A stretch of 64,000 nucleotides of DNA from sequence record KC690136; one strand, written 5' to 3'. Positions 7,161 to 60,977 of the stretch are shown piece by piece. The DNA comes from Escherichia phage JES2013. Position 1 is the stretch's first letter. Each line of letters starts with the position of its first letter. The position numbers and the translations under genes are program-made. The notes below the pieces were generated by a model that was not told the origin of the DNA, searched no databases, and saw only the letters and a program-made list of their open reading frames with translations.

Positions 7161-7189
7161 TTGACATAACCACACGGACGTGGTATTGT
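7161..7189 (+). promoter_or_regulatory. Sigma70-like promoter TTGACA-N17-TATTGT with palindrome CCACACGGACGTGG in spacer
   Basis: Consensus -35, 17-nt spacer; upstream of 7221 ORF. Confidence 0.5.
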
Positions 7190-10017: not shown

Positions 10018-10643
10018 GAGAGCGTCTATTATCCATAGACCAGTCGTTGACACACACAGCTTGCGTTGTATGGGACGATGGAAAGCCTGTTCACAAGGTT
10101 GTGTTACGAACTCAAAGCTCATCTGCAAAAGAGAAGAAACCAGGGACGGTTTCTTTTGCAACAGCTGCTGAGCGTATTGACTGGATCTGCAAACAGGTCA
10201 GATATTATATCCACACGCACGGCGTTGACACCGTGGTTATGGAAGGGCTTTCCTTTGGATCACGCGGGGATGCCACACGTGAACTGGCTGGGTTGTTTTA
10301 CGGTCTTGAAGTTATGCTTTGGGATGCTTTGGCTGATTGTGAAAATGACGGCCTGTTTAAGGTCCACACAGTGACACCAACAACTGCCAAAAAGTTTGCT
10401 CGTAGTCATCTTCCTGAGGAACTTGCTTTTGAGGAGAAGAAAAAGCTTGACAAAAAGACAGGTAAAGAGCATACTGTGAAGAAACCTGTTACGATGGATA
10501 AAAAGTTGATGGTTAAGGCCTGCGAAGTATCTGAACCTGGGTTCCTAGACGGGATCAATTTGGTACAAGGTAAGGCCGATCTCGCAGATGCTTATTGGAT
10601 AGGCAGGGCGCATCTGGAGGGATTATCGCAAAGCGTAAAATAA
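10014..10643 (+). CDS. RuvC-like (RNase H fold) nuclease, putative resolvase
   Basis: LSIDQSLTHTACVV and VVMEGLSF resemble RuvC LGIDPG...AIEQVFM; weak. Confidence 0.4.
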   Translation: MRERLLSIDQSLTHTACVVWDDGKPVHKVVLRTQSSSAKEKKPGTVSFATAAERIDWICKQVRYYIHTHGVDTVVMEGLSFGSRGDATRELAGLFYGLEVMLWDALADCENDGLFKVHTVTPTTAKKFARSHLPEELAFEEKKKLDKKTGKEHTVKKPVTMDKKLMVKACEVSEPGFLDGINLVQGKADLADAYWIGRAHLEGLSQSVK

Positions 10644-16306: not shown

Positions 16307-16807
16307 ATGGCTCACTTTGTTAGTGAGCCAGAAATGGAGACAGATATGAGTAATGTTATGATTCCTAAAAAGACATTTATTTCAGTTACTTTGGATTTCC
16401 TATCTACCGTTCCCGGGTTTAACGTTCGCACACGAAACGGTCTCCGAGCTGCACTCTTTGCCGTAGGGTTTGATTTAAAAAGTATTGATGTTCTTCGTGG
16501 AAAAAACGTTCGATGCAAAAATAAGCCAACACATTATCGAAAGGCAGATGTATTTGCTGGTGTCATGCGTGCAGACTTTAGATACCCGCAAATGTATAAC
16601 GGTGTAGATATTTTAGATGTAGATAAAGCACCCGGTGAGGCAATGCTTGTTCAAGATCTTCCGTATGATATCCCTGTGGAGGATCGTGTTAATGTAAGAA
16701 AGTATACAAAACAATCTGAAAAGGCTGAAGATATTCATATTGTTGATGAACCTTTCAATTTTGAAGATCTGCATCGCCTGGAAAAATTATTCGGTATTGA
16801 AAGCTAA
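16307..16807 (+). CDS. Hypothetical protein
   Basis: 166-aa ORF downstream of promoter. Confidence 0.45.
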   Translation: MAHFVSEPEMETDMSNVMIPKKTFISVTLDFLSTVPGFNVRTRNGLRAALFAVGFDLKSIDVLRGKNVRCKNKPTHYRKADVFAGVMRADFRYPQMYNGVDILDVDKAPGEAMLVQDLPYDIPVEDRVNVRKYTKQSEKAEDIHIVDEPFNFEDLHRLEKLFGIES

Positions 16808-16817
16808 GGTGGTGAAG

Positions 16818-17048
16818 ATGAGTCATAACTCCAAGTGGAAGGATCTTGGTTTTGCAAGTCGGGCAGAGTATGTTGGTTGGCTTTGGTTCAATGGCCTGAC
16901 AAACGATATTAAAATGTATGATGATGTCTATTATGACGAGTATACAGGTAAAATTATAAATATCTCTGTAGAAGAGGATACTTTTATCCAGCAAGATACT
17001 GATACCTGCCTTGATAAATACGTTAGTGAAGTGGAGGAAGCAAATTGA
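16818..17048 (+). CDS. Hypothetical protein
   Basis: Start refined to ATG after AAGGTGGTG (MSHNSKWKD). Confidence 0.4.
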   Translation: MSHNSKWKDLGFASRAEYVGWLWFNGLTNDIKMYDDVYYDEYTGKIINISVEEDTFIQQDTDTCLDKYVSEVEEAN

Positions 17049-19360
17049 TCACCAAGGTAATTAAAAGCAACGGATGTGAAGTGGCATTCGATCCAGAACG
17101 TTTAAATAAGGCAGCTATTTTCGGTGACGACGGTAACGGCAATTGGTCACACATTGCACTGGATGCATACAAACGACTGTATGATGGATGTACAACCAAA
17201 GAAGTTAACCAAGCTATCATAGACTCCTGTGTTAGCCGTAAAGACGAAGCACATTCCCGTATGGCTGGTCGTGTTCTTATTGGTCAGATTTATAAAGAGG
17301 CTTTTGGAGGGTTTACAAAGATCCCTTCCTTACCATCATTTTACAATACCATGGTTGAGAAAGGGTATTGGGAGGATATGGGATATAGCTTTACCGAGCT
17401 AAACACTTTAGACGCTGTTATTGACCACAGTAAAGATCTCGGTTATGGCTATGCAGTCCTTAAACAGTTTCGCGACAAATACGGGATCAAGGATACTCTT
17501 AAAGACACCTTGTTTGAATCTCCCCAGATGATGTTTATGGGGATAGCAATGGCTGTCATGAAGAATATGCCGAAAGAACGTCGTATCAACGATGTTGTAA
17601 AATTATACACTTATCTGTCCGACTTAAAGATCAATGCCCCAACACCGTACTTAAACGGGCTGCGCACAGGTAAGACAGGGTATGCATCTTGTTGTGTAAT
17701 AAAAGCTGACGATACAGCAAAATCTATTGGTGTGGCACGTGAAGTTGCGTACACAATGACGGTTAACCAAGCAGGTATCGGCTACTATTTATCATCAAGA
17801 TCTGCAGGCGATGGTGTTCGTGGTAACACTATTAAACACATGGGTAAGATTCCATATTATCGAGGTATTGATGCTGGGGTTAAGGAGAACAGACAACAAT
17901 CACGTGGCGGTTCTGCAACAGTATCATTCCTTGCACTAGACCCACAGATTGATGAGCTAATCCGTTTGAGAAACCCTATGACTGTTGCTTCAAAAAGAAT
18001 CAACACCATGGACTACTCTATAGGTATTAACAGGTCGTTTATCAACCGTGTGGCTAAGAATTTAGATTGGATGCTTGTTTCTTATAAGCACGCGCCTCAA
18101 CTGCATGAAGGTATCTTCACCATGTCTATGGAGGAGTTTGATGCAGAGGTTGATCGTATCGCTAAAGATGACAGTATTCCTAAAACATGGATCCGAGCTA
18201 GAGATCTTGCTGTTGAGCTGATCACGCAGCGTACCGAAGTGGGAAGGCTGTACGTATACTGGACAGATGAGATGAATAGACATACACCTTTTAAAGATGT
18301 GATCTATTCAAGTAACCTGTGTGCAGAAATAGCCCTCCCGACAAAAGGCTATTCAGATATGCGTAATATCTTCAAGTACGATGTTGATGATGGTGAGGTT
18401 GCATTGTGCTTCCTGTCATCTCTTGTAGCTGGAAGGGTTACCCCAGAGGAGTATGAGGATGTTGCATACTATACGGTGCTTATGATTGACAATGTTATGG
18501 AAATCATGACATATCCATATGAAAATATGGAGAGCACTGTTAAAAAACGCAGATCCATCGGGGTTGGCCTTACCAATGTTGCACATTTTATTGCCAGCCA
18601 CAAGGTTACTTACGGATCTCCTGAAAGTAAACAGCTTGTTCACGATCTTGCAGAACTTCACAGCTACAGCTTGCATAAGGCAAGTTTACGGTTGGCAAAA
18701 GAGCGTGGTGTCTGCGAGTGGATGCATAAAACAAAATATCCAGAAGGTTGGTTACCAATCGACACCTATAACAAAGAGGTAGATAGCGTGGTGAAAGATC
18801 CTTCTCTTAAACAGGATTGGGAAGGGTTACGTAAAGAAATCATTGAAAATGGTGGGCTACGTAATAGCGTTCTTGAAGCATATATGCCTAATGAAAGCTC
18901 TTCGCTGGCAACAAACACCACTAATGGGGTTTATCCTGTCCGTGAGCACATCATCTTTAAAAAATCGCCACAAGGGCAGGTGCTGTTTATCGTTCCTGAC
19001 TATGATGAGTTGAAAGAGTATTACACCTCGGCTTGGGACGTTGATACTAACGACATGATCGATATGTATGCTGTGATTCAAAAATTCACAGGTCAGGCAA
19101 TCAGCGCGGATTTATACATAGACTACACCAAGTTGAAAGATGGTAAAATTTCAATGAAGGAGCAGCTAGGGTACCTTATCCGTGCCACTAAATTTGGGAT
19201 GAAGACATGGTATTATTTAAACTCTAGGGTTGGTGCTGGTGACTCCTTGGCAGAGGAACTTCATGCCAAGAAACAGGCTGAAGATGAAACCAGAAAGAAC
19301 TACCCTTTGATTGCAGATAGTTCAGTTGAAGATCCGTATTGCGAAAGCTGTGCACTATAA
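17045..19360 (+). CDS. nrdA: Ribonucleoside-diphosphate reductase class Ia alpha subunit
   Basis: 771 aa; ATP-cone-like N-terminus; NLCAEI active-site region; C-terminal CESC; followed by nrdB. Confidence 0.9.
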   Translation: MITKVIKSNGCEVAFDPERLNKAAIFGDDGNGNWSHIALDAYKRLYDGCTTKEVNQAIIDSCVSRKDEAHSRMAGRVLIGQIYKEAFGGFTKIPSLPSFYNTMVEKGYWEDMGYSFTELNTLDAVIDHSKDLGYGYAVLKQFRDKYGIKDTLKDTLFESPQMMFMGIAMAVMKNMPKERRINDVVKLYTYLSDLKINAPTPYLNGLRTGKTGYASCCVIKADDTAKSIGVAREVAYTMTVNQAGIGYYLSSRSAGDGVRGNTIKHMGKIPYYRGIDAGVKENRQQSRGGSATVSFLALDPQIDELIRLRNPMTVASKRINTMDYSIGINRSFINRVAKNLDWMLVSYKHAPQLHEGIFTMSMEEFDAEVDRIAKDDSIPKTWIRARDLAVELITQRTEVGRLYVYWTDEMNRHTPFKDVIYSSNLCAEIALPTKGYSDMRNIFKYDVDDGEVALCFLSSLVAGRVTPEEYEDVAYYTVLMIDNVMEIMTYPYENMESTVKKRRSIGVGLTNVAHFIASHKVTYGSPESKQLVHDLAELHSYSLHKASLRLAKERGVCEWMHKTKYPEGWLPIDTYNKEVDSVVKDPSLKQDWEGLRKEIIENGGLRNSVLEAYMPNESSSLATNTTNGVYPVREHIIFKKSPQGQVLFIVPDYDELKEYYTSAWDVDTNDMIDMYAVIQKFTGQAISADLYIDYTKLKDGKISMKEQLGYLIRATKFGMKTWYYLNSRVGAGDSLAEELHAKKQAEDETRKNYPLIADSSVEDPYCESCAL

Positions 19361-19398
19361 TTTTAAAGGGGCTTCGGCCCCATTTTAGAGGTAGAATA

Positions 19399-20487
19399 AT
19401 GGCTGTATTTAATGCTGAGAACACCGCTCATAAAACTGGTGACTATCCGCTGTTTCTGGGACAGCAAATGGGTATGTACGACTCTATCAACAAAAAATAT
19501 CCACAACTGTTCGAACTGTACAAAAAACAAAAAGAACAAGACTGGGCAGAGGATGAAGTGGATTTGTCGCAATCTATTTCAGATTTTGTAACATGCTCCA
19601 AGTCAACTTATGATGTGATGGTGCAGACCTTGATGTGGCAATGGGAGGCTGATAGCGTTGCGGCAAGATCGATCATCTGCCTCTTTTCACCATTCATCAC
19701 TAATAGTGAGCTTTTCACTCTATTGATGAAACAGTCAGAGATTGAAGTTCTTCACGCACTAACTTACTCAGAGATTGTTAGACAATGCCTCCCCAATGCC
19801 CGTGAGATTATAGAAGAGATTCAGGAAAACCAAAACGTTCTGAGCAGATCTGGCGTTATTGTCAAATACATGCAAGAGCTTGAGGTTATTGGTGCAAAAT
19901 ACCGACTGGATCCTTCTAGTGTTGAAGAAGATATTGTGCGGAAATGCATTCTTAGAGCGCTTTTTGCACTTTTAGCCCTGGAAAGTATTGAGTTTATTGC
20001 AAGTTTTGCATGCACTTTCGCAGTAGCTGAACAGGGTATTTTTGTTCAGGTGGCGCAGCTTGTTCAAAAAATCATGCTTGACGAAATGCTACATTCGAAA
20101 GGTGATTTTGCCATCATTGATATCCTGCTTAATGATCCGGCATGGGAGAAAAGCTTCCTTGAGATAAAAGGGGAGTTAAAAGAGATTCTTGATGAAGTAC
20201 GAACCAAAGAGTACGGTTGGAGTGACTATATTTTCAGCGAAGGAAGAGCGATTATAGGTCTTAACTCACCGTTGCTTAAAGAATGGGTTGACTATAACTG
20301 CTCACCGATTTATGATTACTACGGCATCGACAAAGACTTTGTGCCGCCAACAAAGGACCCTCTACCGTTTATGCAGGTGTGGATGAAACCTTCATTGCAA
20401 CAGACGGCGAACCAAGAAATGTCGAACACTGACTACCGCGTCAACACAACTGTTAATGACGCTGAAGAAGAAATTTGGGAGTTTTAA
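19399..20487 (+). CDS. nrdB: Ribonucleoside-diphosphate reductase class Ia beta subunit
   Basis: Ferritin-like di-iron helices; start refined to ATG after stem-loop GGGGC-ttcg-GCCCC and GAGG SD. Confidence 0.85.
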   Translation: MAVFNAENTAHKTGDYPLFLGQQMGMYDSINKKYPQLFELYKKQKEQDWAEDEVDLSQSISDFVTCSKSTYDVMVQTLMWQWEADSVAARSIICLFSPFITNSELFTLLMKQSEIEVLHALTYSEIVRQCLPNAREIIEEIQENQNVLSRSGVIVKYMQELEVIGAKYRLDPSSVEEDIVRKCILRALFALLALESIEFIASFACTFAVAEQGIFVQVAQLVQKIMLDEMLHSKGDFAIIDILLNDPAWEKSFLEIKGELKEILDEVRTKEYGWSDYIFSEGRAIIGLNSPLLKEWVDYNCSPIYDYYGIDKDFVPPTKDPLPFMQVWMKPSLQQTANQEMSNTDYRVNTTVNDAEEEIWEF

Positions 20488-20490
20488 TAC

Positions 20491-20769
20491 ATGAGCTGTG
20501 AAAAATCTTTTTTCTTTATTATTTACGGTAAAGATAACTGCCCACATTGTGTAAGAGCAAAAGAATTTGCAGTCAGTAAAGGTCTGCCTTTTGTATATAA
20601 GACACTTGGCGAGGGTTACACAAAAGAAGAGCTTATCGAGAAGTGCAGTCCAATCGTACCCAGAACGTTGCCGCAGATCTTCTTAGAAAGCAATCTTGAA
20701 AGTGTCCATATAGGCGGTGCCGACGATTTCATCTCTTTTGTTAAGAATGGTTTTGGAGAGAAAAAGTGA
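20491..20769 (+). CDS. Glutaredoxin/NrdH-like redoxin
   Basis: CPHC active site in IIYGKDNCPHCVRAKEF; sits between aerobic and anaerobic RNR genes. Confidence 0.7.
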   Translation: MSCEKSFFFIIYGKDNCPHCVRAKEFAVSKGLPFVYKTLGEGYTKEELIEKCSPIVPRTLPQIFLESNLESVHIGGADDFISFVKNGFGEKK

Positions 20770-22889
20770 AAGTTGTAAAACGGGACGGTAGAGAAGAGGT
20801 CTATAACGGAATTAAGGTGATCAAGGCGGCAGAGTCCGCCTTACTTGAGTCTGGACATACTGAAGAAGAAGCTTACCGGATCGCCTGCGCGGTTAATGAA
20901 GTTGTTGCTAACAATCTACCAACCGACCAGTGCACGATCTCTGTAAAAAATATCCATATCCTTGTTGAAGACGCTCTTATGGATATGGGTTTAAAATGTG
21001 CAGCCAGAGAATACATCCAGTATAGGCAGACAAGAGATAATAACAGAGAGGCAGGTGGAAAACTGCTTGCAGATATTAGTGGCTTCTTGGATCGCACTTG
21101 TGATGAATTTACAAAAGAAAACGCAAATAAGCCTACCAATCATGTACACACTCATCGTGACCTGCTTGCAGGCATCCTTAGCAAACACCTTGCATCAACA
21201 CAGATCCTGCCAGACCGTGTCTCAGAAGAGCACAATAAAGGCTTCATCCATGTGCATGATCTTGACTACTTGATCAGTCCGTTAACAAACTGTTGTTTGG
21301 TAAATTATCCAGATATGTTGGAAAACGGATTCAACATTGGCAACGCCCATGTCAGTAAGCCGAAGTCAATAGGGGTTGCAACAACAATCCTTAGCCAAAT
21401 CTCTAGTGCAGTAGCTAGTGCTCAATATGGAGGTCAGACTATGAGCCATATTGATCATTATCTGGCACAGTATGCTGAGGCGACCTATGAGAAGAATCTT
21501 AAATTTTGCCAGGAACACTGGTTGCCAGATGCTGAGACTGTTGCAATGCAAATGACAGATAAAGACGTATTTGACAGCATGCAGACTTTGCTCTATCAAA
21601 TCAATACGTTAACCTCTGTCAACGGGCAAACTCCATTCATCACATTAAGTTTAGGACTGGATACCTCGGTCTTTGGTAGAATGATTACCAAAAACTACTT
21701 GAAAGTCCACAAAATGGGTCTTGGTGAAGAACGTATCACACCTGTGTTCCCTAAAGTGCTGTTCTTCCTAGAAGAGGGTGTCAACATGAGCCCTGGAGAT
21801 CCCAACTATGATTTGAAACGATTAGCTCTGGAATGCTCTGCAGAGCGGATTTATCCTGACTTTGTTTCTGTTCCACTAAATCGTAAAGTGACAGGCTCGA
21901 CAGATGGCAAAGTAACGAGCATGGGTTGCCGGAGTTTTCTTAGCAAATACAATGACTTGGAAACAGGCGAGGAGAAATACCTTGGTAGATTTAACTTAGG
22001 CGTTGTTAGCCTTAACCTGCCAATGATTGCGGCAAAAGCTAAAACGGAAGGTGTTGATTTCTTTGCAGTTCTTGACGAATACCTGGATCTTGCATACGAG
22101 GCTCACCTTGTAAGGGTTAACCGTCTAAAAGGAACAAAGGCAGGGCAGAACCCTATCATGTGGTGTGAAGGCGCTCTTGCTCGCCTGGATCCTGAAGAGA
22201 GTATTGATAAACTCTTCTATGACGGGTACGCTTCCATCAGTATTGGGTATATTGGTGTGTATGAAACCTGTCAGATTTTGGGCAGGGAGGGTGACAAGGC
22301 TTTAGCTCTTGGAATACTCCAGCACATGAGAGATGCTTGTGAGCGATACAAGAAGGAAAGTAGACTAGCGTTTAGCTTGTACGGCACCCCTTCTGAGAGT
22401 CTATGCTATAAAGCTGCAACCTGTCTGGATCGTGAATATCCTGAAGTGTTGAAGCATGAGCATGAATACCTCACCAACAGTTTCCATCAGCCAGTATGGA
22501 TAAATAGCTCTCCTTTTGATAAGTGGGAATACGAGGAAGGTTTTGCTATGATCTCCTCTGGTGGCAACATCGGATACGTAGAGACACCAAATCTGAAAAA
22601 CAACTTAGATGCTTTAGAGGCTCTTGTTGACTTCGGGTATAAACACATTATGTATTTTGGTATCAACCAGCCTGTGGATAAATGTCTTAAGTGTGGTTTC
22701 TCTGGTGAGTTCAGTGCAACAGCTAAGGGATTCGTATGCCCGGAGTGTGGAAACCATGAAGAGGGAACGATCAGTGTGATCAGACGTGTATCCGGGTACC
22801 TGTCTAGTCCAAACTCCCGTCCTTACAATAAAGGTAAGCAAGCGGAAGTTATAGAACGGGTTAAGCACTACGGAAGTTGTGGTTGCTGA
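20766..22889 (+). CDS. nrdD: Anaerobic ribonucleoside-triphosphate reductase
   Basis: 707 aa; C-terminal glycyl-radical-like RRVSGYL and zinc ribbon CLKCGF...CPECGN; followed by activase. Confidence 0.85.
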   Translation: MKVVKRDGREEVYNGIKVIKAAESALLESGHTEEEAYRIACAVNEVVANNLPTDQCTISVKNIHILVEDALMDMGLKCAAREYIQYRQTRDNNREAGGKLLADISGFLDRTCDEFTKENANKPTNHVHTHRDLLAGILSKHLASTQILPDRVSEEHNKGFIHVHDLDYLISPLTNCCLVNYPDMLENGFNIGNAHVSKPKSIGVATTILSQISSAVASAQYGGQTMSHIDHYLAQYAEATYEKNLKFCQEHWLPDAETVAMQMTDKDVFDSMQTLLYQINTLTSVNGQTPFITLSLGLDTSVFGRMITKNYLKVHKMGLGEERITPVFPKVLFFLEEGVNMSPGDPNYDLKRLALECSAERIYPDFVSVPLNRKVTGSTDGKVTSMGCRSFLSKYNDLETGEEKYLGRFNLGVVSLNLPMIAAKAKTEGVDFFAVLDEYLDLAYEAHLVRVNRLKGTKAGQNPIMWCEGALARLDPEESIDKLFYDGYASISIGYIGVYETCQILGREGDKALALGILQHMRDACERYKKESRLAFSLYGTPSESLCYKAATCLDREYPEVLKHEHEYLTNSFHQPVWINSSPFDKWEYEEGFAMISSGGNIGYVETPNLKNNLDALEALVDFGYKHIMYFGINQPVDKCLKCGFSGEFSATAKGFVCPECGNHEEGTISVIRRVSGYLSSPNSRPYNKGKQAEVIERVKHYGSCGC

Positions 22890-22893
22890 TACT

Positions 22894-22925
22894 TGACAAA
22901 AGCCACAAGGATGTGGCATATTATT
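22894..22925 (+). promoter_or_regulatory. Promoter-like TTGACA followed by hairpin GCCACA-agga-TGTGGC and TATTAT
   Basis: Consensus -35; spacer about 19 nt; palindrome shared with element at 29863-29879. Confidence 0.4.
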
Positions 22926-22949
22926 GACACACAGTGAGCTAGGAGGTAC

Positions 22950-23069
22950 AGTATGTCTACAGGTATTTATAAAATTTGCAAGTGTGGTTGTCGTTGCAAT
23001 CTTCGTTGGTGCAAGGCACTGGACGATTTTATTTGGCATTGCCCTAAATGTGATGCGGAGTATCTATGA
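22950..23069 (+). CDS. Small cysteine-rich (zinc-ribbon-like) protein
   Basis: 39-aa ORF MSTGIYKICKCGCRCNLRWCKALDDFIWHCPKCDAEYL; AGGAGG SD; stop overlaps nrdG start. Confidence 0.35.
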   Translation, partial: SMSTGIYKICKCGCRCNLRWCKALDDFIWHCPKCDAEYL

Positions 23070-23539
23070 ATATTGCCGGATACACAGAAATATCTTACAC
23101 CGAAGGGCCAGGTATTAGAACTGCCTTATGGGTATCTGGGTGCCCACACGCTTGCCCTGGTTGCTTTAATCAGGCATTTTGGTCAAAAGATAAGGGGAGA
23201 GAGTTTACTGAAGAAGACTTGCAAAAAATCTTGTCAGATTTAGATAACCCGTCTGTGTGCGGTATCTCTCTGCTGGGTGGAGAACCCTTAGCATACTATA
23301 ATGAGCCAGATATTATTAGCCTGATGGAGAAAATTAAGGAAAAATTTGGTGACAAGAAAACTATTCTTGTATATACTGGGTTCACATTTGACCATATCTC
23401 TAGTGATGTTCTTAAACTGGCTGATATCATCATTGACGGTAAGTATGTAAAAGATTTACCAACCAAGAAACCGTTCCGAGGCAGTGATAACCAAAGAATG
23501 TTTAAAAAAGTATCAGGCGGTTGGGTCCAGGTAGACTAG
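23066..23539 (+). CDS. nrdG: Anaerobic RNR activating protein (radical SAM)
   Basis: CPHACPGC matches radical-SAM CxxxCxxC; directly downstream of nrdD. Confidence 0.85.
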   Translation: MNIAGYTEISYTEGPGIRTALWVSGCPHACPGCFNQAFWSKDKGREFTEEDLQKILSDLDNPSVCGISLLGGEPLAYYNEPDIISLMEKIKEKFGDKKTILVYTGFTFDHISSDVLKLADIIIDGKYVKDLPTKKPFRGSDNQRMFKKVSGGWVQVD

Positions 23540-23543
23540 CTGT

Positions 23544-23572
23544 TGACAAAGCTTTGTTTAGATAGGTATAAT
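23544..23572 (+). promoter_or_regulatory. Sigma70-like promoter TTGACA-N17-TATAAT
   Basis: Consensus -35 and -10. Confidence 0.6.
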
Positions 23573-23603
23573 TATCGTAAAATGAAAGCAGAGGAGGTGC
23601 CAA

Positions 23604-23717
23604 ATGGCTAAAAAAGCCTTGAAGAAGGCGTACAAAAAAGAAATTGCGCTTGAGCTCAAGAAAAAACACAAGCGTGAAAAGAAACATCATGAGGATGAAG
23701 AGGGGGTGCAACAGTGA
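23604..23717 (+). CDS. Small lysine-rich protein
   Basis: 37-aa ORF MAKKALKKAYKKEIALELKKKHKREKKHHEDEEGVQQ; GAGGAGG SD; stop overlaps next GTG start. Confidence 0.3.
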   Translation: MAKKALKKAYKKEIALELKKKHKREKKHHEDEEGVQQ

Positions 23718-24064
23718 CACAAGAACGTATCGATTTGGCTAATAAGTTTGTAGATCTCATTTTGCCACGGTTAGTTACTCAACATGCAGACGCTATTTCT
23801 ACTAATCTTGATGGCTTACGCCTAATGCTGAATCGCACAGATGACCCTCGTATTCGGGCTGATTTAGAAGCCTCTGCCAACAAACTGGAAAAGTTCTTGC
23901 AAGTAGACACGCAAGAAGCCTTACACAAGATTATGGTGGAAGGTTTCTCTAAAGAATTTACCATTAAAGAGCTTAAGGAGCTGATCCACCAAGAAGAGAT
24001 GAATATCCGAGTTCAGGCTGTTGCAAGCAGCATGGAAGCGGCTATTGAAAAACTGTTGCAGTAA
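23714..24064 (+). CDS. Hypothetical protein
   Basis: 116-aa ORF, GTG start. Confidence 0.45.
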   Translation: MTQERIDLANKFVDLILPRLVTQHADAISTNLDGLRLMLNRTDDPRIRADLEASANKLEKFLQVDTQEALHKIMVEGFSKEFTIKELKELIHQEEMNIRVQAVASSMEAAIEKLLQ

Positions 24065-24102
24065 AAGTACTTGGCACATCTCAATCTGAAAGGAGTCCCA
24101 AC

Positions 24103-24891
24103 ATGGGTCGAGCTAAAGAAACAAAACGCATGCGTGATGAAGCTAGAGAGGCTCGCAAATCTGATCGCCTGCGTAAGGCTGCTGAGAAATTTGCTGACGA
24201 AAGAGAGCACACCGCTCCAGCTCTCCGACCAATGAATAAGAAGCAGCAAAAGTATCTTGATTATCTAGGGTCACGTAAGATTATCATTGTAAACGGTGTG
24301 TTTGGATCTGGTAAGACATTCATGGCATCTGCCTATGCAGGTGATCTTCTGCGTAAGAACGAGATTGATAAGATCATTGTTGCACGTCCTTACGTTCAGA
24401 CAGGAAAGACTTCAGGATTTAAACCTGGAAATGCAATGCAGAAACTGTGGCCCTATCTTCGAAGCATGATGGACACGATTTGTCGTCGTGTTGGCAAAGG
24501 TGCTTTTGCCGCAATGCTGGGAGACGGTCAGAACAGCCGTATCGAGATTTGTGAGGTTGAAAGCATTCGTGGTCGTAGTTTCGATGAGCGATGCTTTGTC
24601 CTGATTGACGAGGCACAGCAAACTAACCCTGAAGAAATGTTGTCAATTATCACAAGGATCTCTGATCAGGCCACCCTTGTAATTATGGGCGATAATAGCC
24701 AACGTGACATCCCTGGTAAATCTGGCCTTGCATGGGTGACGGATTTCTTTACTCGTCATCCAGATCCTGAGGTTGGAATGATCAGCTTTGATAGTCCAGA
24801 CGATGTTGTTCGTTCCGGGTTGGGTCGTCAGATTGCACTCAATCTTATTGAGGATCGTGCAAATCATATTTGGACCCCTGTTTCCGAGTAA
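24103..24891 (+). CDS. phoH: PhoH-like ATPase
   Basis: Walker A GVFGSGKT, Walker B-like VLIDEAQ, PhoH-like length. Confidence 0.85.
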   Translation: MGRAKETKRMRDEAREARKSDRLRKAAEKFADEREHTAPALRPMNKKQQKYLDYLGSRKIIIVNGVFGSGKTFMASAYAGDLLRKNEIDKIIVARPYVQTGKTSGFKPGNAMQKLWPYLRSMMDTICRRVGKGAFAAMLGDGQNSRIEICEVESIRGRSFDERCFVLIDEAQQTNPEEMLSIITRISDQATLVIMGDNSQRDIPGKSGLAWVTDFFTRHPDPEVGMISFDSPDDVVRSGLGRQIALNLIEDRANHIWTPVSE

Positions 24892-24935
24892 TACAGAAGG
24901 GTGGTTATTCCACCCTTAGATATCTAAAACAGTTG

Positions 24936-24964
24936 TTGACAAACAGGTAAGATTTAGATATTAT
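24936..24964 (+). promoter_or_regulatory. Sigma70-like promoter TTGACA-N17-TATTAT
   Basis: Consensus hexamers; preceded by hairpin AGGGTGG-ttatt-CCACCCT after phoH stop. Confidence 0.6.
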
Positions 24965-24994
24965 TACCGGACAAGACAAGGAGAAGGAGATAGT

Positions 24995-25306
24995 ATGGCT
25001 ACAATACAAGAGAGACTGAATAAAATATACTGCCTGTTTGTCTATAACGGCGAGACAATTTTGGCAAATAAAGGATCCAAGAATGTGTGGATCAAGGACA
25101 GGGGTGGTAATATAATCAACTTAGCGTTGCTACGTGAGCGCCGACACAGATTCTTTATCGAGTCTCGGATTATTGAAAGCAGCACCTGCTACAGAACAGG
25201 CGATAAAGTAATTGTTGACAATGATACGTGGTATGTGGTAGACTGGCAATCATTGAGCTGTGATGCTTCTGACAATCGTAAGTATTCCCTAGTGATTGCT
25301 AAATAA
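24995..25306 (+). CDS. Hypothetical protein
   Basis: 103-aa ORF. Confidence 0.5.
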   Translation: MATIQERLNKIYCLFVYNGETILANKGSKNVWIKDRGGNIINLALLRERRHRFFIESRIIESSTCYRTGDKVIVDNDTWYVVDWQSLSCDASDNRKYSLVIAK

Positions 25307-25366
25307 AGGTAAATGTGAATCAGGTTTAAATAAATAGCTTTCAACTTCCAATATTAAGGATTTCTC

Positions 25367-26416
25367 ATGAATTTAACACCTCGCAGCACCATGGTACACG
25401 GCATGAAAGAAAAACAGAACGGTTTCGAACCTATGAGTAATAAAATGTTTGGTATGCCGGGTGGTATTATGGAAACATACAGCTACCCAACACCTGTTGT
25501 TGACCACGTTCTTTATATCGACGATTTGGAAGACTTACAAGATCATATGTCTCGTCTGCAGACGATCCGTATGGCTCAGCCGGAAGAAAGCATTCGGGTG
25601 ATCATCAATAGCCCTGGGGGTTGCGTGCACATTGCAATGGCTTATCTGCAGGCATTCCGCGAGTCTCAGGCAAGCGTTGTTGCACATGCTGAAGGGATGT
25701 GCTGCTCTGCTGGAACAATCTTATGGCTTGGTTGTAAAGAACGTACTGTGGCTCCGGACACAGAGTTTATGTTCCACTACTATCAAGGTGGCACTTATGG
25801 TAACGGTGTGAACATGAATACTCAGGTCAGCTACTGGAAAAAACGTTTTGAACGCCTGATCGAAAAATACTACGGTGGGGTGCTGACAGAAGATGAGATC
25901 GCATCCATCACAGCTGGTGGCGAAGTGTGGTTGGACGGAGAAGAGCTGGCAGCACGCACTGGAGCTATTATTCTGGATGAAGGCAACATACAACGCATCC
26001 AGAACGGACAAAAACCGAAAAAGCTTCTGGCAAAAGGTGATGAAGAAGGCGTGTTAGGTGAAGCAGGTCTTCCGGAGATTCACCAGTGCACATCTTTAGA
26101 TGAGTTAGTTCATGCTGTTGAATCTGCAAAAGCGGGTGGTTCGAAAGGTGATGTTCACACTGTGTTCCTGAATCTGCAGATGGAAAGTGGCGAGACCGTC
26201 AGAATTGCCCTGGGTGAGATTACTTCAGAAGATCTGCAGAGATTCTCTGTCGTTGAACTTCAGGATATTCTGTCTCAATTGAAGACTACTCTGAACGGCG
26301 GTGAAGAGGTTAAGGTGAAAGATAAGACGCGCAAGCGTCTGGTGGACAATATTATTAAAACAGCAAAAGAGCTCAATGAAAAAATCCTGGGTGCAGGAAT
26401 TGTCGAAGAAGCTTAA
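25367..26416 (+). CDS. ClpP/S14-family serine peptidase-like protein with C-terminal extension
   Basis: INSPGG, GMCCSAGTIL (active-site Ser region) and MFHYYQGG (His region) parallel ClpP. Confidence 0.6.
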   Translation: MNLTPRSTMVHGMKEKQNGFEPMSNKMFGMPGGIMETYSYPTPVVDHVLYIDDLEDLQDHMSRLQTIRMAQPEESIRVIINSPGGCVHIAMAYLQAFRESQASVVAHAEGMCCSAGTILWLGCKERTVAPDTEFMFHYYQGGTYGNGVNMNTQVSYWKKRFERLIEKYYGGVLTEDEIASITAGGEVWLDGEELAARTGAIILDEGNIQRIQNGQKPKKLLAKGDEEGVLGEAGLPEIHQCTSLDELVHAVESAKAGGSKGDVHTVFLNLQMESGETVRIALGEITSEDLQRFSVVELQDILSQLKTTLNGGEEVKVKDKTRKRLVDNIIKTAKELNEKILGAGIVEEA

Positions 26417-26427
26417 ACATTAATTCT

Positions 26428-26450
26428 AAAGCCCTCTTCGGAGGGCTTTT
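26428..26450 (+). terminator. Rho-independent terminator AAAGCCCTC-ttcg-GAGGGCTTTT
   Basis: Perfect stem with tetraloop and T tract after peptidase stop. Confidence 0.7.
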
Positions 26451-26467
26451 ATGATCTGGAGATTTGC

Positions 26468-27001
26468 ATGACTTGTGCTAGAAAACCTGATGAACAACGT
26501 AACGCCTACGATGAGTATGTGACACCGGAGTGGTGTGCAGAAGGGCTGTATGACCTTATTCCGTTCCCAGAAGACTGGACCTACTTAGAGCCTTGCAGGA
26601 ATAGTGCCTCAGGTGTGTTCTACTCCCGTATGCCGTTAGGATCTGCATGGGGAGAAATCCAAGAAGGTGTTGACTATCTGAATACAGAATACAACCATGT
26701 TGACTGTATTATCACCAACCCGCCGTACAGCCTGGCTCGTGAGTTTGTGGACAAGGCGTTGAAAGATGCCGACGTAGTTATTATGCTTTTGCGTCTTAAT
26801 TTTCTGGAAAGCAAGGCCAGATTTGAATGGTGGCTTGATAATGCACCTACCACTGTGATCACAATATCTAAGCGCCCGTCATTCCAATCCAATGGTAGAA
26901 CGGATGGGCAGGCATATGCATATTTTGTATGGGACAAGAAAAACCGTCTAGACTTGCCGCCATTTATGTGGTTGGCACCACCAGAGGCAGATTTGAAATG
27001 A
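26468..27001 (+). CDS. DNA methyltransferase-like (NPPY motif)
   Basis: ITNPPYS catalytic motif IV of N6-adenine/N4-cytosine methyltransferases; short, 177 aa. Confidence 0.55.
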   Translation: MTCARKPDEQRNAYDEYVTPEWCAEGLYDLIPFPEDWTYLEPCRNSASGVFYSRMPLGSAWGEIQEGVDYLNTEYNHVDCIITNPPYSLAREFVDKALKDADVVIMLLRLNFLESKARFEWWLDNAPTTVITISKRPSFQSNGRTDGQAYAYFVWDKKNRLDLPPFMWLAPPEADLK

Positions 27002-27282
27002 AAATGAGTGCTAAGGACAAGTTGCACCAGTTAGCGCTAAAACGTCCTGTAACGCTCCCTGACGAGCTTAACTCCATTTATGATGCGATTGTAGGGGAGA
27101 TACAAAATAAAGCGTTAGCAGGCTTTCTGGGATGCGGATTTTCGATAAATCTACCCTCACATCTCTCAGATTACTTCCCGCATATTGTTGGGGATTTGAG
27201 GGCAGGAGGTCTGCAGGTAGATGTTGTTGGCATCTCTCCAGAGAAAAATAACACGGTTGCCTACTTGACAGTAACCTGGTAG
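26998..27282 (+). CDS. Hypothetical protein
   Basis: ATG overlaps upstream stop (ATGA). Confidence 0.45.
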   Translation: MKMSAKDKLHQLALKRPVTLPDELNSIYDAIVGEIQNKALAGFLGCGFSINLPSHLSDYFPHIVGDLRAGGLQVDVVGISPEKNNTVAYLTVTW

Positions 27283-27317
27283 TTATGTATTGTTGTTCTC
27301 AACAAGGGGGGTCATTT

Positions 27318-27557
27318 ATGTACAAGTCATTTTCAATTTACTCAAGACAGGCGAAACACTACACAGAGATCCTGATTACTCAGAAAAAATCTGTAGAAGG
27401 TGAGTGGGAATATCACCATAAAATGTTGCGTCCAGATTGGGTTTTTGATAGACTTATTGCTATGATCCCTCTTGGAGAAGTATACCCTCTGACAGGTCAT
27501 AGGGATGCTTGGGATTTAATTGATTACATAGATTCATTTAAGGAGCCCAGTGTATGA
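27318..27557 (+). CDS. Hypothetical protein
   Basis: Start refined to ATG after AAGGGGGG. Confidence 0.4.
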   Translation: MYKSFSIYSRQAKHYTEILITQKKSVEGEWEYHHKMLRPDWVFDRLIAMIPLGEVYPLTGHRDAWDLIDYIDSFKEPSV

Positions 27558-27952
27558 AGATTGAGATCACTAAAGAAGGTAAGAAAGTGTCTGGAGACTA
27601 TGCAACAGTAATTCGAGATTTAATGTTTGAAACCACCAAGTTCGGCACATCTAAAGTTGGTCAAACGGTGAGTGTGCAAGGTAATATCACCTCAGGAGAG
27701 AAGATAATCATCGTGATCAAAGGACAAGATCCTGTGGAAGGAACAGTGGGCCGAGGAGGCTACCTGTGCATTTCTGAAGAACCGCGCATGCTGGTTGCTG
27801 ATGACTCCACAGGTAAAAAGCGGGTATGTAACACTGACGAGGTGATGATTATCTATCCAGTCAACCCAGATGATCCTGCAACATGGATTGTGGGGAATGA
27901 AATCTTCTCTTTAGAAGAGTTATCATTCCCAGCTCCGCGCTCTGTTCAGTAA
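27554..27952 (+). CDS. Hypothetical protein
   Basis: 132 aa, begins MKIEITKEG. Confidence 0.5.
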   Translation: MKIEITKEGKKVSGDYATVIRDLMFETTKFGTSKVGQTVSVQGNITSGEKIIIVIKGQDPVEGTVGRGGYLCISEEPRMLVADDSTGKKRVCNTDEVMIIYPVNPDDPATWIVGNEIFSLEELSFPAPRSVQ

Positions 27953-27991
27953 TAATTTATCTTACCAGGGACGGTAGAAGTAGGAGGTAGC

Positions 27992-28225
27992 ATGAAAGTT
28001 AAATTTCTTACAGATTTAGGGTACCCTTCCTTGGTTGACTGCGTTGGTAAAATTGTGGAAGCAAAACGACTATCTGCAAACGATAATGTTGTCATGGTTA
28101 AGGGAAAAGATTTACTATCTGCAGGTGCAGAGTCTGGCAGGATCTCTCCTGACTATACGTATTACCTGTCTTTAAGTAATCTACCAGAACGAGGCGGCAA
28201 AGGCCTTGAAGTTGTGGAGGAGTGA
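27992..28225 (+). CDS. Small acidic protein, paralog family A
   Basis: MKVKFLTDLGYP...VKGKDLLSAGAESG...GLEVVEE; shares motifs with 31616, 31827, 33709, 33950 ORFs. Confidence 0.5.
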   Translation: MKVKFLTDLGYPSLVDCVGKIVEAKRLSANDNVVMVKGKDLLSAGAESGRISPDYTYYLSLSNLPERGGKGLEVVEE

Positions 28226-28230
28226 CAGGT

Positions 28231-28749
28231 ATGCTACTGGTTGATTGGAAAGATTTTTATGGCGATAAAGACCCGAAAGCATTTATATATAAGCCTTGGA
28301 GATACTCAGAGAGTCAAATTGCTGCAATAAACCTTACAGCAAAGCGCCGAAAAATTATTGAAAGTAAATATAGATACGCCCAGCTAGTGGCTGGTGTTTC
28401 TCCACAGGTAGAGGGTTTTGTACTTAAACTGTACGAAAAGTTTATGAATTACGATTTGTCATTCGTGAAGGTGGGCGAGGATTTATCCCCTGGTAACAAC
28501 GTAACTCGTTGGAAAGTTTCGTGTGACAAAAAACTCCCGATCAGTATTGAGGTGTGTCGATACTGGGGGTATCATGATTGTGGATTGTATGACTACCATG
28601 ATGTGGAAATAAAGCCACGCAATCATCTAAGCGACACAGAAAAAGATTACTTGAAGCATGTGATTCTTTCCATGTTTGGAGGGTATATCACAGAGAAAAA
28701 TAGCGAAGACAGAGTATCCTTTCTTAACAGTTTGAACCAGGAGATGTAA
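28231..28749 (+). CDS. Hypothetical protein
   Basis: Start refined to ATG after GGAGGAG. Confidence 0.5.
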   Translation: MLLVDWKDFYGDKDPKAFIYKPWRYSESQIAAINLTAKRRKIIESKYRYAQLVAGVSPQVEGFVLKLYEKFMNYDLSFVKVGEDLSPGNNVTRWKVSCDKKLPISIEVCRYWGYHDCGLYDYHDVEIKPRNHLSDTEKDYLKHVILSMFGGYITEKNSEDRVSFLNSLNQEM

Positions 28750-28750
28750 T

Positions 28751-28987
28751 ATGGCCATAGATACTGTGTTGGTTTGGTATTGCGCATTGACCTTTCTGAC
28801 AATGGTTGTTTTAGCAACTCTTTGCATCATATCTTGTAGAAAAATTAAGTTTGACGACTTTATAACTATAATCACTGCCGCACCTTTTTGGCCTGTCGTT
28901 CTCTTCATTGTTGTTATGTGCTTGGTAGATCACTGTAAAACCGTCAGAAAAATGAAGGAGGCAGATAAGAATGGTAACAGTGACTGA
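28751..28987 (+). CDS. Small membrane protein (two predicted TM helices)
   Basis: Two hydrophobic segments: LVWYCALTFLTMVVLATLCIISC and IITAAPFWPVVLFIVVMCLV. Confidence 0.5.
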   Translation: MAIDTVLVWYCALTFLTMVVLATLCIISCRKIKFDDFITIITAAPFWPVVLFIVVMCLVDHCKTVRKMKEADKNGNSD

Positions 28988-29101
28988 AACTGTTTATACT
29001 GTTCTTAGGGAGATTGCATTCTATACAGACCTTAGTTCAGTATCTTCATGGGAAAAGAGTGTGTATTTAAAATGGTGCGTGAAATTAGAGGGGACCTTCT
29101 A

Positions 29102-29221
29102 ATGTTTCAAGCCATGTTTATTGAAATGCTCTCCGGAGTATTACTGCTGGTAGCCATTTTGGGTGGTGCGGCACTAATGTATAATTATCTTGAAAAAGGA
29201 GACAGCAATGGTAAAAAATAA
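29102..29221 (+). CDS. Small membrane peptide (39 aa)
   Basis: sORF MFQAMFIEMLSGVLLLVAILGGAALMYNYLEKGDSNGKK; GAGGGGA SD; below ORF-track size cut-off. Confidence 0.3.
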   Translation: MFQAMFIEMLSGVLLLVAILGGAALMYNYLEKGDSNGKK

Positions 29222-29393
29222 ATCTTTAGAGCAGGCTGAAAACCTTCTCCACGAGCTGGTAAAGGAGTGGAAAGTTGAATACTCAGATTTTAATGCACGA
29301 GAGGGTGAAGATTATTGGCCTACGGAGCGCTCAGAGGGTGAATGGTATCAAGATTTTATAGAGTGGTTATATCAGACGTGCGATGAGGGGTGA
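29208..29393 (+). CDS. Hypothetical protein
   Basis: Start refined to ATG after AAAGGAG. Confidence 0.4.
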   Translation: MVKNKSLEQAENLLHELVKEWKVEYSDFNAREGEDYWPTERSEGEWYQDFIEWLYQTCDEG

Positions 29394-29851
29394 CGATGTT
29401 TGTTAAATATGTAAAAACGTGCCTCAACAGCCTTGGCAGAGAGCATTGGTACACCTTGCTTGAAAAAGGAGAGATTTTAACAAAATCTGGAAAGATAACT
29501 TTGATACCTCTTGACAGTAAAGACCCGTCACTACTTGTTATAGATGATTACGTTACAGGTGTGACGTTCGAGGTCTCTGTGGAGAGGTTAATACGCAGAG
29601 CTGGCGGCCCTTGTGATCAAAGAGAGTATGTTTTCGATTCCGTTACAGAGAGGGATCATCCGTCTTTAATGTTCAGGATGGTAATCAGAGATATGAGGTC
29701 ATCTATAGATAGGATCGTAAAGGACATTAAGGAACCTTTTAGAGTAAAAGTTAAGAAGTTTTTTGATTCTAAGATTAACATACTTGCCGTTGTGCTAGGC
29801 GTAATTCAACTTCTGTTAATTTTGCACTATTTTGAACTGTTGTCTAAGTAG
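29390..29851 (+). CDS. Hypothetical protein with C-terminal TM segment
   Basis: C-terminal hydrophobic LAVVLGVIQLLLILHYF. Confidence 0.5.
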   Translation: MTMFVKYVKTCLNSLGREHWYTLLEKGEILTKSGKITLIPLDSKDPSLLVIDDYVTGVTFEVSVERLIRRAGGPCDQREYVFDSVTERDHPSLMFRMVIRDMRSSIDRIVKDIKEPFRVKVKKFFDSKINILAVVLGVIQLLLILHYFELLSK

Positions 29852-29911
29852 TGTGCAACAAGGCACAAAGGATGTGCCATAATTAAACAAATTAAGAAAG
29901 AGGTAGAGAGA

Positions 29912-30259
29912 ATGTCAAAGATTAAATCGATATTAATGTGGGTAGCTGTTGTGGCTTTTATAGGGTACTGGGTTTGGGAAACTGAATTAAAAGATATCGG
30001 ATATACCAGTCTTGAGAGCAAGGCGTGCATTGGCATAACCGATGCGTTCAGGCAAAACGCTATGGATCACGAATGTGTTGATGCAGATATAGATGAGAAA
30101 CTGTCTAAGGACAAAGATTTTTACCATGGGCATGCTTTGCTTGATAGTGGTGACACTGTAGAGTTCTGGTCGTGGTTCCGTGAAGATGGAACAATAAAAA
30201 CAGCAGTAAAGATCTCTAACAAAGAGTTAATGCTGTTGCAGCAGAAGGAGGCTCAATGA
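29912..30259 (+). CDS. Membrane-anchored protein
   Basis: N-terminal hydrophobic segment ILMWVAVVAFIGYWVW. Confidence 0.5.
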   Translation: MSKIKSILMWVAVVAFIGYWVWETELKDIGYTSLESKACIGITDAFRQNAMDHECVDADIDEKLSKDKDFYHGHALLDSGDTVEFWSWFREDGTIKTAVKISNKELMLLQQKEAQ

Positions 30260-30945: not shown

Positions 30946-30947
30946 CT

Positions 30948-60606: not shown

Positions 60607-60977
60607 TGATCGGTCTCCTTCTTGTTAAGTCTGAATACTGCAATAATAGCATTCCCAAGGTGCAGTGTCAAATCATTTCCAAGATACCACAACATTCCAC
60701 GGTCATCTTTAATGAAAGGGTAACAATCTGGTGCCTTCCAGACATTGTACACTTTCCCAACCTGAAAGAAATCAGGCCCTGTTGGGATTTTGGTGCCAGG
60801 CCACACTTGGGATACCTGAACACACTCCACCTGCATAATAACAGGAATAGTCATGGATGTAAATGTTTTTGTTGGTTCTACTACCATAAAAGTCTCCTCT
60901 TTGCTTAACAGCACCTCCCTGTGCTGATAGTTTACATTAGTGACAATCACCCCAGTTACGACCACACAAGTATTCAC
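60603..60977 (-). CDS. Hypothetical protein (possible family D relative)
   Basis: DDRGMLWYLGNDLTLHLGNAI; 3' of DNA polymerase gene. Confidence 0.45.
   Translation of the reverse strand: MNTCVVVTGVIVTNVNYQHREVLLSKEETFMVVEPTKTFTSMTIPVIMQVECVQVSQVWPGTKIPTGPDFFQVGKVYNVWKAPDCYPFIKDDRGMLWYLGNDLTLHLGNAIIAVFRLNKKETDQ

Follow-up and report, generated by a model that had tools for sequence, protein, structure and literature searches.

We analyzed a stretch of 64,000 nucleotides (nt) from Escherichia phage JES2013 (record KC690136), which we call the window. Over bases 20000-32000, it shows 100% identity with E. coli O157 typing phage 4 (KP869102.1, an rV5-like member of the genus Vequintavirus) and matches 124 further phage records at 80-99%, and the window is a stretch of an rV5-like Vequintavirus genome. 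Nucleotide-metabolism and replication genes lie on the plus strand up to about 38 kb. Beyond that, early genes and a replication module lie on the minus strand, and most of the phage genes in the window have no known function. A short hairpin begins 12 nt past the stop codon of nrdD (22887-22889) and ends 35 nt ahead of an ATG at 22953. The original prediction for this locus was that the hairpin is shared with intergenic regions at 29.9 and 7.17 kb, as an operator or an RNA motif. We find that each genome has seven such intergenic hairpins on the sense strand, of which the window holds five and the remainder of KP869102.1 two. They have stems of 5-9 base pairs (bp) and an A(N)GGA(N) loop, and they start 5-12 nt past a stop codon. 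We list them here, with the open reading frames (ORFs) nearby where these locate a site, along with one hairpin from a coding region.

Site 1: 22902..22917, plus strand; GCCAC-AAGGAU-GUGGC, or a 6-bp stem with an AGGA loop; fold of -9.3 kcal/mol.
Site 2: 29862..29878, plus strand; GGCACA-AAGGA-UGUGCC (6-bp stem with a 5-nt loop; alternatively, a 7-nt loop on 5 bp).
Site 3: 7169..7184, plus strand; ACCAC-ACGGAC-GUGGU; 11 nt past the lysozyme stop and 36 nt ahead of ORF 7221-7427.
Site 4: 60926..60909, minus strand; CAGCAC-AGGGAG-GUGCUG; found with a strict regular expression.
Site 5: KP869102.1 30793-30776, outside the window; AGTGGC-AAGGAT-GCCACT; intergenic.
Site 6: KP869102.1 48697-48676, minus strand, outside the window; AGAACGGA-AAGGAC-TCCGTTCT plus a U-rich tail; intergenic.
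Site 7: 27962..27977, plus strand; UUACC-AGGGAC-GGUAG; found on allowing one G·U pair.
Possible coding-region member: 10132..10157, plus strand; AGAAGAAACC-AGGGAC-GGUUUCUUUU, 10 bp, inside ORF 10014-10643; membership uncertain.

The three sequences that were first noticed are all there: GCCACAAGGATGTGGC at 22902-22917, followed by ATATT up to 22922; GGCACAAAGGATGTGCC, which lies at 29862-29878, one base lower than had been given; and CCACACGGACGTGG at 7170-7183. They do come soon after one gene and before the next, starting 10-12 nt past a stop codon and ending 33-36 nt ahead of an ATG. Site 2 begins 10 nt past the stop (29849-29851) of ORF 29390-29851, a "virion structural protein" in PHROG, and ends 33 nt ahead of the ATG of ORF 29912-30259. 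Site 4 begins 10 nt past the stop of the DNA polymerase gene and lies 21 nt ahead of the ATG (60887) of a 94-amino-acid ORF, whose Shine-Dalgarno (SD) sequence, GAGGAG, is 21 nt past the loop GGA. Site 7 begins 9 nt past the stop of ORF 27554-27952, with the SD AGGAGG 5 nt on and the ATG of ORF 27992-28225 14 nt on. The stop-to-hairpin gaps of the five window members are 11, 12, 9, 10 and 10 nt. Site 6, which has the longest stem in the family, lies between two tail-fibre genes. It is also immediately upstream of the rV5 "late promoter" P030 (GTGTTAAAATAG), and the SD of the next gene is AAGGAA (KP869102.1 48697-48620, minus strand).

A genome-wide motif search gave at least seven copies per genome, so the family is not confined to the copies first noticed. 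With the rest of the genome (KP869102.1) included, a scan for ANGGAN hexaloops whose stems have 5 bp or more added sites 5 and 6 outside the window and the coding-region hairpin within it. The region around the latter is 98.6-100% identical in relatives, so its conservation is uninformative. This hairpin can also be written AGAAGAAACC-AGGGAC-GGTTTCTTTT, and ORF 10014-10643 is annotated as RNase H-like in relatives.

Minimum-free-energy folding, in contexts of 61-81 nt, recovers every hairpin, and GGA is in the apical loop in 7 of 7 intergenic members and in all of the variants described below. The loop sits directly on the stem: six members have an ANGGAN hexaloop, while site 2 has an AAGGA pentaloop closed by an A-U pair. 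The arms are different at each site (GCCAC, GGCAC, ACCAC, CAGCAC, TTACC, AGTGGC and AGAACGGA). The 6-bp stem with an AGGA or CGGA loop that had been proposed for every copy is one option at site 1; site 2 has AAGGA instead, and site 3 does not fold this way, as the inner A and C are unpaired and the structure is 5 bp with a hexaloop. No Rfam family matched anywhere in the window at the gathering threshold.

Could this be a chance resemblance among ordinary intergenic hairpins and SD-like runs of purines? Sites 1 and 2 had been described as nearly identical, and the 21-mers are real, but 18 of 21 matches with one indel is by our estimate not rare in 64 kb. Similarly, the loose pattern CACAARGGATGTG with up to 3 mismatches matched 41 times, as compared to 35.2 ± 5.6 in shuffled sequences, and generic GGA-loop hairpins, counted with 4-8 nt in the loop and a minimum of 5 bp in the stem, numbered 42, as compared to 35.8 ± 6.6 expected; neither is enriched. 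Nor is the loop class a genome-wide outlier if G·U pairs are allowed. Nevertheless, 5 of 52 intergenic hexaloop hairpins on the sense strand have ANGGAN loops, versus 0 of 52 on the antisense strand and about 0.25 expected, where the denominators are approximate as our ad hoc gene model over-calls intergenic DNA in the window (18.7%). ANGGAN is the commonest loop class among those 52, and no other class recurs so often. These class counts are supportive, not decisive. What goes beyond chance is the class in its intergenic, sense-strand context together with its conservation in relatives, where the hairpins are invariant or covary in more than 100 genomes while adjacent bases vary, and where loop substitutions are limited, with the one exception given below, to the N and X positions of the A-N-GGA-X loop. 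Because neither the likeness of the 21-mers nor the loose counts are significant, our case rests on context and evolution, and given these we consider chance very improbable.

We sampled about 115 Vequintavirus genomes by reading selected divergent relatives rather than by aligning them all in full. Searches with short windows matched 108 records for site 1, 115 for site 2, 119 for site 3, and 121 for site 4, and the hairpin elements are present in essentially all Vequintavirus records. We also queried IMG/VR with NrdG, which gave 2 loci, and with the protein downstream of site 2, which gave 1 locus; a metagenome scan gave 9 loci, 5 of them usable.

Among orthologues, we saw at least 10 substitutions in the loops: 9 were on N or X, 1 was on the first A, and none were on GGA. 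By our calculation, the probability that at least 9 of 10 would fall on 2 of the 6 loop positions is about 4e-4. At site 3, the loops are ACGGAC, AUGGAC and AUGGAU (the latter two in ECP32 and S127), on an unchanged stem. At site 4, the loops are AGGGAG, AAGGAG, AUGGAA and ACGGAA, so that N takes all four bases. The orthologous hairpins there are CAGCAC-AAGGAG-GUGCUG, CAACAC-AUGGAA-GUGUUG, and CAACAC-ACGGAA-GUGUUG, and the change from CAGCAC/GUGCUG to CAACAC/GUGUUG is a compensatory replacement of G:C by A:U. The AUGGAA form was read in two phages, and 68 records have the same identity to our site 4 as that form does (90.2%, or 5 mismatches in 51).

Of the stem cells in 12 distinct variants, 98% are paired. 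Eleven of the 12 variants close with C-G, and at the penultimate 5' position 7 have A and 5 have G. Only the variants within a site are unbiased evidence for covariation. These include, besides site 4, a U:A to C:G change at site 5 and an A:U to G:C change at site 7. Site 5 occurs as AGUGGC-AAGGAU-GCCACU, GCGGC-AAGGAU-GCUGC, and GGUGGC-AGGGAU-GCCGCU, with one pair altered on both sides and several G·U wobbles, and its spacer has indels as well. The change at site 7 is in a metagenome contig (UUUGCC-AAGGAU-GGCAGG), where both N and X also differ. Site 1 is unchanged in most relatives, with two exceptions, a metagenome contig and SYGMH1; the contig has GUCAC...GUGGC, which retains pairing via a U·G wobble. 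At site 2, the core is invariant in 9 of 9 relatives read and the flanks vary. A 9-bp form, UAUGGCACA-AAGGA-UGUGCCAUA, was read in six loci, and the identity band and extent of the match fit it in 84 records, so the 9-bp stem appears to be the majority form.

Because some of the stem changes are G·U wobbles, which can pair in the sense strand only, and because the orientation is strictly sense, we view this as an element of RNA rather than DNA. An operator for a DNA-binding protein should have the same half-sites around a free spacer. Here it is the centre that stays constant, the arms vary between copies and covary, and G·T breaks the palindrome in DNA, which makes an operator unlikely. Of the two possibilities first offered, then, the shared RNA motif is borne out by the sense-strand bias, the compensatory and G·U changes, and the common A-N-GGA-N loop, while the shared operator is not. 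We judge it likely, given how the loops and stems have evolved, that these are functional RNA hairpins whose loops have a specific reader.

Another view is that the hairpins are purely structural, as weak intrinsic terminators or as barriers to 3' exonucleases that set mRNA levels upstream and downstream, with no specific reader of the loop. Every member does begin 5-12 nt past a stop codon, and a scan flagged site 1 as terminator-like. Also, in Mangalyan, whose sequence we read, an insertion begins at the base after the site 1 stem, and therefore the hairpin stays with nrdD. The matches of "nom" and typing phage 14 stop at the same base, which suggests the same arrangement. In phage nomine, an insertion replaced site 1, and the nrdD stop is followed by GAGAGC-AAGGAU-GCUCUC and U11. 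This is a textbook terminator, and a U-tract follows site 6 as well. The replacement hairpin in nomine has the same AAGGAU loop as site 1 on an unrelated stem. However, U-tracts are missing from most members (for example, UUAAGCAAAG and AAGUAGGAGG), whose stems have only 5-6 bp worth -4 to -10 kcal/mol, while the predicted terminators of this phage are GC-rich stems with UUCG loops. In the window, the members are followed by AUAUUAUU, AUAAUUAA, AUUGUUAC, AAGUAGGA and UUAAGCAA, and none of them combines a GC-rich stem with a U-tract. A structural role would also leave unexplained why 9 of 10 loop changes are on N or X and why GGA is constant. We consider this view quite unlikely.

We set aside a few other ideas about what the loops do. 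Pairing with the anti-SD or a ribosome standby site does not fit, as N is free and yet the non-adjacent A is fixed. Small ORFs starting within the GGAUG of the loop do not have a conserved frame. A "terminator" annotated near site 1 in phage Murica is a different hairpin, within the small ORF there.

Two of the hairpins overlap putative sigma-70 promoters:

Putative promoter over site 1: 22893..22922, plus strand; TTGACA, an 18-nt spacer that holds the hairpin, TGn, CATATT.
Putative promoter over site 3: 7161..7189, plus strand; TTGACA, a 17-nt spacer, TGn, TATTGT; this is rV5 P090.

The rV5 paper lists 33 predicted promoters of the consensus type, of which 11 are extended -10 (PMC3606486). 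Site 3 corresponds to P090 in its Table S4, so the placement of the 7.17 kb copy in a promoter spacer was correct; sites 1, 2 and 4 are not listed. The promoter at site 1 scores 10/12 with TG in a consensus scan and is annotated in phage Gotham as "promoter, predicted by PhagePromoter". Its TTGACA and CATATT are unchanged in the relatives we read, except that Mangalyan has lost CATATT. At site 3, TTGACA is unchanged in 7 of 7 relatives read; five have TATTGT as their -10, and 10C2 and rV5 P090 have TATTTT instead. In rV5_ev158, the upstream homology at site 3 ends just before ATCATTGACA. These two promoters are probably credible, judging by their consensus and conservation, and if so the hairpins lie in their spacers.

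This raises the possibility that the motif is a by-product of extended -10 promoters: the 3' arm (GTGG or GTGC) supplies the TGn, and the 5' arm is incidental or is an operator for a DNA-binding phage protein. The agreement with P090, the calls at site 1, the constancy of TTGACA and near constancy of the -10 at both sites in all relatives read, and the conserved block in rV5_ev158 that starts just upstream of TTGACA would all fit. The trouble is that the other sites do not have promoters. The original prediction placed a -10-like hexamer beside each hairpin, and this holds for sites 1 and 3, each with a conserved TTGACA, TGn and -10, but not for the rest. At site 2 the hexamer varies (CATAAT, CATAAC, CATAGT or CATGAT), and no -35 is conserved; CATAAC does not end in T, and the stem is extended in most relatives by pairing of CCATA with TATGG. 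The members at 27.96 and 60.9 kb have no -10 at all; at site 4, no -10-like hexamer follows the hairpin. Judged against a -35 box, a spacer of 16-18 nt, TGn, and a -10 that has A2 and T6, sites 2, 4, 5 and 7 show no usable -35 or -10. Also, it is the loops that the sites have in common, not the arms; G·U wobbles pair in RNA only; substitutions spare the A and GGA, for which a promoter spacer gives no reason; and Mangalyan retains the hairpin with the -10 lost, as may "nom" and typing phage 14, judging by where their matches end. Because sites 2, 4, 5 and 7 lack a promoter and Mangalyan loses the -10, the family-wide feature is the hairpin and its loop, not the promoter, and we think it unlikely that the motif is a by-product of promoters. 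We also compared the 3' arm and hexamer to the "late promoter" motif of rV5, TGGTAAAATA, and set this aside, as the likeness is loose (7-8 of 11 by eye).

What might read the loop? The features of the hairpins resemble those that CsrA and its relative RsmE recognize. The consensus for CsrA from systematic evolution of ligands by exponential enrichment (SELEX) is RUACARGGAUGU; its ACA and its GGA are both 100% conserved, and the latter falls in a hairpin loop (PMC4347634). A high-affinity site for CsrA or RsmE has an ANGGAX hexaloop directly on the stem, and the pentaloops AAGGA and AGGGA are also bound with high affinity (PMC4005645). The protein reads the A, G, G and A through its backbone, and N and X, which are looped out, can be any base; the protein contacts the G of a C-G closing pair, and the penultimate 5' nucleotide can be U, G or A, although SELEX selected A (PMC4005645). 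In vivo, the motif from cross-linking and immunoprecipitation of CsrA is AUGGA in apical loops (PMC5207318).

Site 1 holds ACAAGGAUGU, a match to the SELEX core at 10 of 10 positions, and sites 3 and 4 hold ACA-N-GGA-N-GU. Across the variants, the closing pair, the penultimate 5' nucleotide, the fixed A and GGA, and the free N and X all agree with what CsrA and RsmE require. At four sites in the window (7.17, 22.9, 27.96 and 60.9 kb), there is a second GGA in the downstream SD, 14-33 nt away (32, 33, 14 and 21). A CsrA dimer is said to reach a second GGA at the SD or start codon over about 10-63 nt. We did not find a CsrA homologue in the phage by tblastn or with a hidden Markov model built from three CsrA/RsmA sequences (the best E values were about 2-3), and because of this, the candidate reader would be the CsrA of the host. 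We put the proposal that host CsrA reads these loops, as candidate sites on polycistronic phage mRNA, at just short of an even chance.

Alternatively, the reader could be a phage-encoded RNA-binding protein or endoribonuclease, in the manner of RegB or RegA from phage T4, which resembles CsrA in its specificity by coincidence. Most of the phage's genes are of no known function, and the constraint on the loop shows merely that something reads A..GGA. The family is also confined to Vequintavirus, with none in 40 kb each of Seunavirus and Phapecoctavirus, although this would fit a genus-specific use of CsrA equally well. However, we did not identify a candidate protein, and there is no CsrA-like ORF. 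The target of T4 RegB is GGAG, which is present in just two of the loop variants. And the constraint fits an abundant host protein feature by feature, down to the free N and X, the C-G closing pair, and the penultimate A or G, so that a second reader of this kind would be less economical. We view a phage reader as unlikely.

If host CsrA is the reader, we imagine the following. The hairpins would be transcribed within polycistronic mRNA by read-through from upstream. At 9-12 nt past the stop codon, a hairpin would be just outside the footprint of a terminating ribosome and would remain folded. One RNA-binding surface of an E. coli CsrA dimer would dock on the loop, as the match to the published determinants suggests, and the other would bridge to the GGA in the SD 14-33 nt downstream, which would reduce initiation at the next cistron. 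At site 2, which has no second GGA, bound CsrA might shield the AU-rich, ribosome-free spacer from RNase E. A handful of phage genes would in this way be tuned to the Csr state of the host. Alternatively, the sites together might titrate CsrA. At sites 1 and 3, the TG of the extended -10 sits in the 3' arm, and transcripts that begin at these promoters would not include the hairpin, so only the read-through mRNA would be under its control. Thus the phage may tie the expression of some of its genes to host CsrA. A bolder version, which we regard as possible rather than probable, is that a genus of virulent coliphages has evolved 7-8 dispersed, high-affinity docking hairpins for CsrA, each placed just past the ribosome that terminates on the gene before it, that set the expression or stability of selected cistrons according to the Csr state, or that its abundant mRNA acts during infection as a collective CsrA sponge that reprograms the carbon metabolism of the host.

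A number of observations count against these ideas. The evidence for CsrA as the reader comes from sequence. SD sequences normally contain GGA, so the second site does not discriminate, and site 2 has none. The genes that flank the hairpins have no functional theme in common, at least from queries that excluded the small cysteine-rich ORF described below. At sites 1 and 3, conservation of the -35 equals that of the hairpin and conservation of the -10 comes close, and the promoters may account for part of it. The covariation between sites is partly built in, as the search pattern that turned up the nomine hairpin and sites 5, 6 and 7 required the motif to be present. Site 1 of SYGMH1 is GUCAC...GUUGC, with a wobble and a C/U mismatch that weaken the stem (-1.1 kcal/mol), and site 1 of FV3 falls in a similar identity band in the short-window search. 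At site 7 of rV5_ev158, the loop is GGGGAC, which is the sole change of the first A, and the stem extends around a GGGA loop. There is no intergenic member in the 40 kb examined from each of Seunavirus GEC_vB_MG and the Phapecoctavirus-like EF1-1, in both of which nrdD and nrdG overlap. Finally, genome-wide, ANGGAN hexaloops are merely tied for the top class (7, versus a mean of 1.55 per class), and with G·U pairs allowed the class is no outlier (10/887).

The high-affinity CsrA, RsmA and RsmE hairpins, such as the hairpin at the ribosome-binding site of hcnA or SL2 of RsmZ, share with the phage hairpins a GGA in the apical loop, A-N-GGA-X directly on the stem, C-G closing, a penultimate A or G, and variable N and X. 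Site 1 carries the SELEX core as well, and four phage sites have a second GGA in the SD. Unlike those hairpins, which belong to 5' leaders or sponge RNAs, the phage ones, as candidate sites, are intercistronic, in a virulent phage and 9-12 nt past a stop codon. Promoter spacers overlap with two of them. The flagellin leaders are another parallel. In the hag leader of Bacillus subtilis, a hairpin (binding site BS1) and a second site at the SD (BS2) are bridged, as cited in a preprint on fliC of Clostridium difficile, and for fliC itself the preprint predicts TGACAAGGATGT as BS1 and CTAAGGAGGG at the SD as BS2. Site 1 has the same two-site layout, with CCACAAGGATGTGG and then CTAGGAGGTAC at the SD. 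On the other hand, the genes and the organism are different, the flagellin sites are in the 5' untranslated region of a monocistronic mRNA, and FliW is not involved in the phage.

There is also a precedent on a mobile element: CsrA represses cel, the lysis gene of ColE7 (PMC2896534). It resembles the candidate phage sites as a target of host CsrA on a mobile element, between the cistrons of an operon, and differs in being a single plasmid site around the SD of cel rather than a dispersed family in a lytic phage. Similarly, sites 1 and 3 resemble the extended -10 promoters of rV5-like phages, with TTGACA, a 17-18 nt spacer, TGn, and a -10-like hexamer, but the other promoters listed for rV5 have no hairpin in the spacer, and sites 2, 4, 5 and 7 have the hairpin without a promoter (PMC3606486). 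Lambda nut boxB and the RegB sites of T4 are also short hairpins or purine-rich loops in intercistronic phage RNA that are read by proteins. BoxB loops are GAAAA-type pentaloops preceded by boxA, and the phage hairpins have no boxA. RegB needs GGAG, which again is present in two of the loop variants only.

We did not find any report, in the literature that we searched, of CsrA sites on the mRNAs of lytic phages. CsrA-type hairpins are a known kind of element, but an intercistronic location in a lytic phage is unusual, and the link to promoters holds for two copies only. If CsrA does bind, we would have a clear example of how a lytic phage can wire part of its gene expression to a global post-transcriptional regulator of the host, and it would explain why these intergenic stretches rank among the most conserved non-coding bases in over 100 Vequintavirus genomes. 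If CsrA does not bind, this is still a conserved RNA motif with a loop-specific reader yet to be found. Several of these genomes are from phages that have a practical use, in the typing or biocontrol of E. coli O157. The hairpins also call for some caution in annotation, as two of them overlap predicted promoters. In Mangalyan, the AGGA in the loop of site 1 (locus 111-114) is annotated as a ribosome-binding site, 15 nt upstream of the called ATG of the inserted gene; this is probably an annotation artefact from the SD-like loop.

In some relatives, inserted genes abut the edges of the hairpins exactly (the retrieved loci are nomine 20400-20470, Mangalyan 110-211, and rV5_ev158 3970-4660). In nomine, the replacement hairpin comes with the T11 terminator and a new promoter, and in rV5_ev158 the insertion directly precedes the TTGACA of site 3. 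The hairpins may be module boundaries for recombination or homing.

The ATG downstream of site 1 begins a 38-codon cysteine-rich ORF (22953-23069, plus strand; MSTGIYKICKCGCRCNLRWCKALDDFIWHCPKCDAEYL, zinc-ribbon-like) between nrdD and nrdG, and its stop codon overlaps the ATG of nrdG (ATGA). This ORF is not annotated in KP869102.1, is hypothetical in ECP26 and 10C2, and is lacking in Seunavirus and Phapecoctavirus.

A different set of hairpins lies on the minus strand of the window at 42487-50374. There are six consensus sigma-70 promoters (TTGACA-N17-TAnnnT) here, often with an A-rich stretch upstream, and each has a GC-rich stem-loop (for example, GGCGGGAAAACTTCCCGCC) within about 5-10 nt past its -10:

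42501-42487, minus strand; hairpin after a promoter.
44084-44066, minus strand; hairpin after a promoter.
44351-44336, minus strand; hairpin after a promoter.
47837-47819, minus strand; hairpin after a promoter.
49705-49688, minus strand; hairpin after a promoter.
50374-50357, minus strand; hairpin after a promoter.

From their positions, these look like the 5'-terminal hairpins of early transcripts, possibly for protection from RNase E.

We also noticed some oddities in the public records. The closest one, KP869102.1, is permuted relative to the window (its bases 16451-26295 were compared to 37851-47695 of the window). One block of 9.8 kb in it repeats another part of the genome at 99.5% identity, and for about 6.7 kb of the window (50145-56853) we saw no counterpart where we compared the two. 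This record is labelled as a partial genome and may be misassembled. Also, about 20 GenBank records named "Campylobacter phage" (MG0656xx, with C. jejuni as the host) are 95-100% identical to E. coli Vequintaviruses, and their host labels look doubtful.

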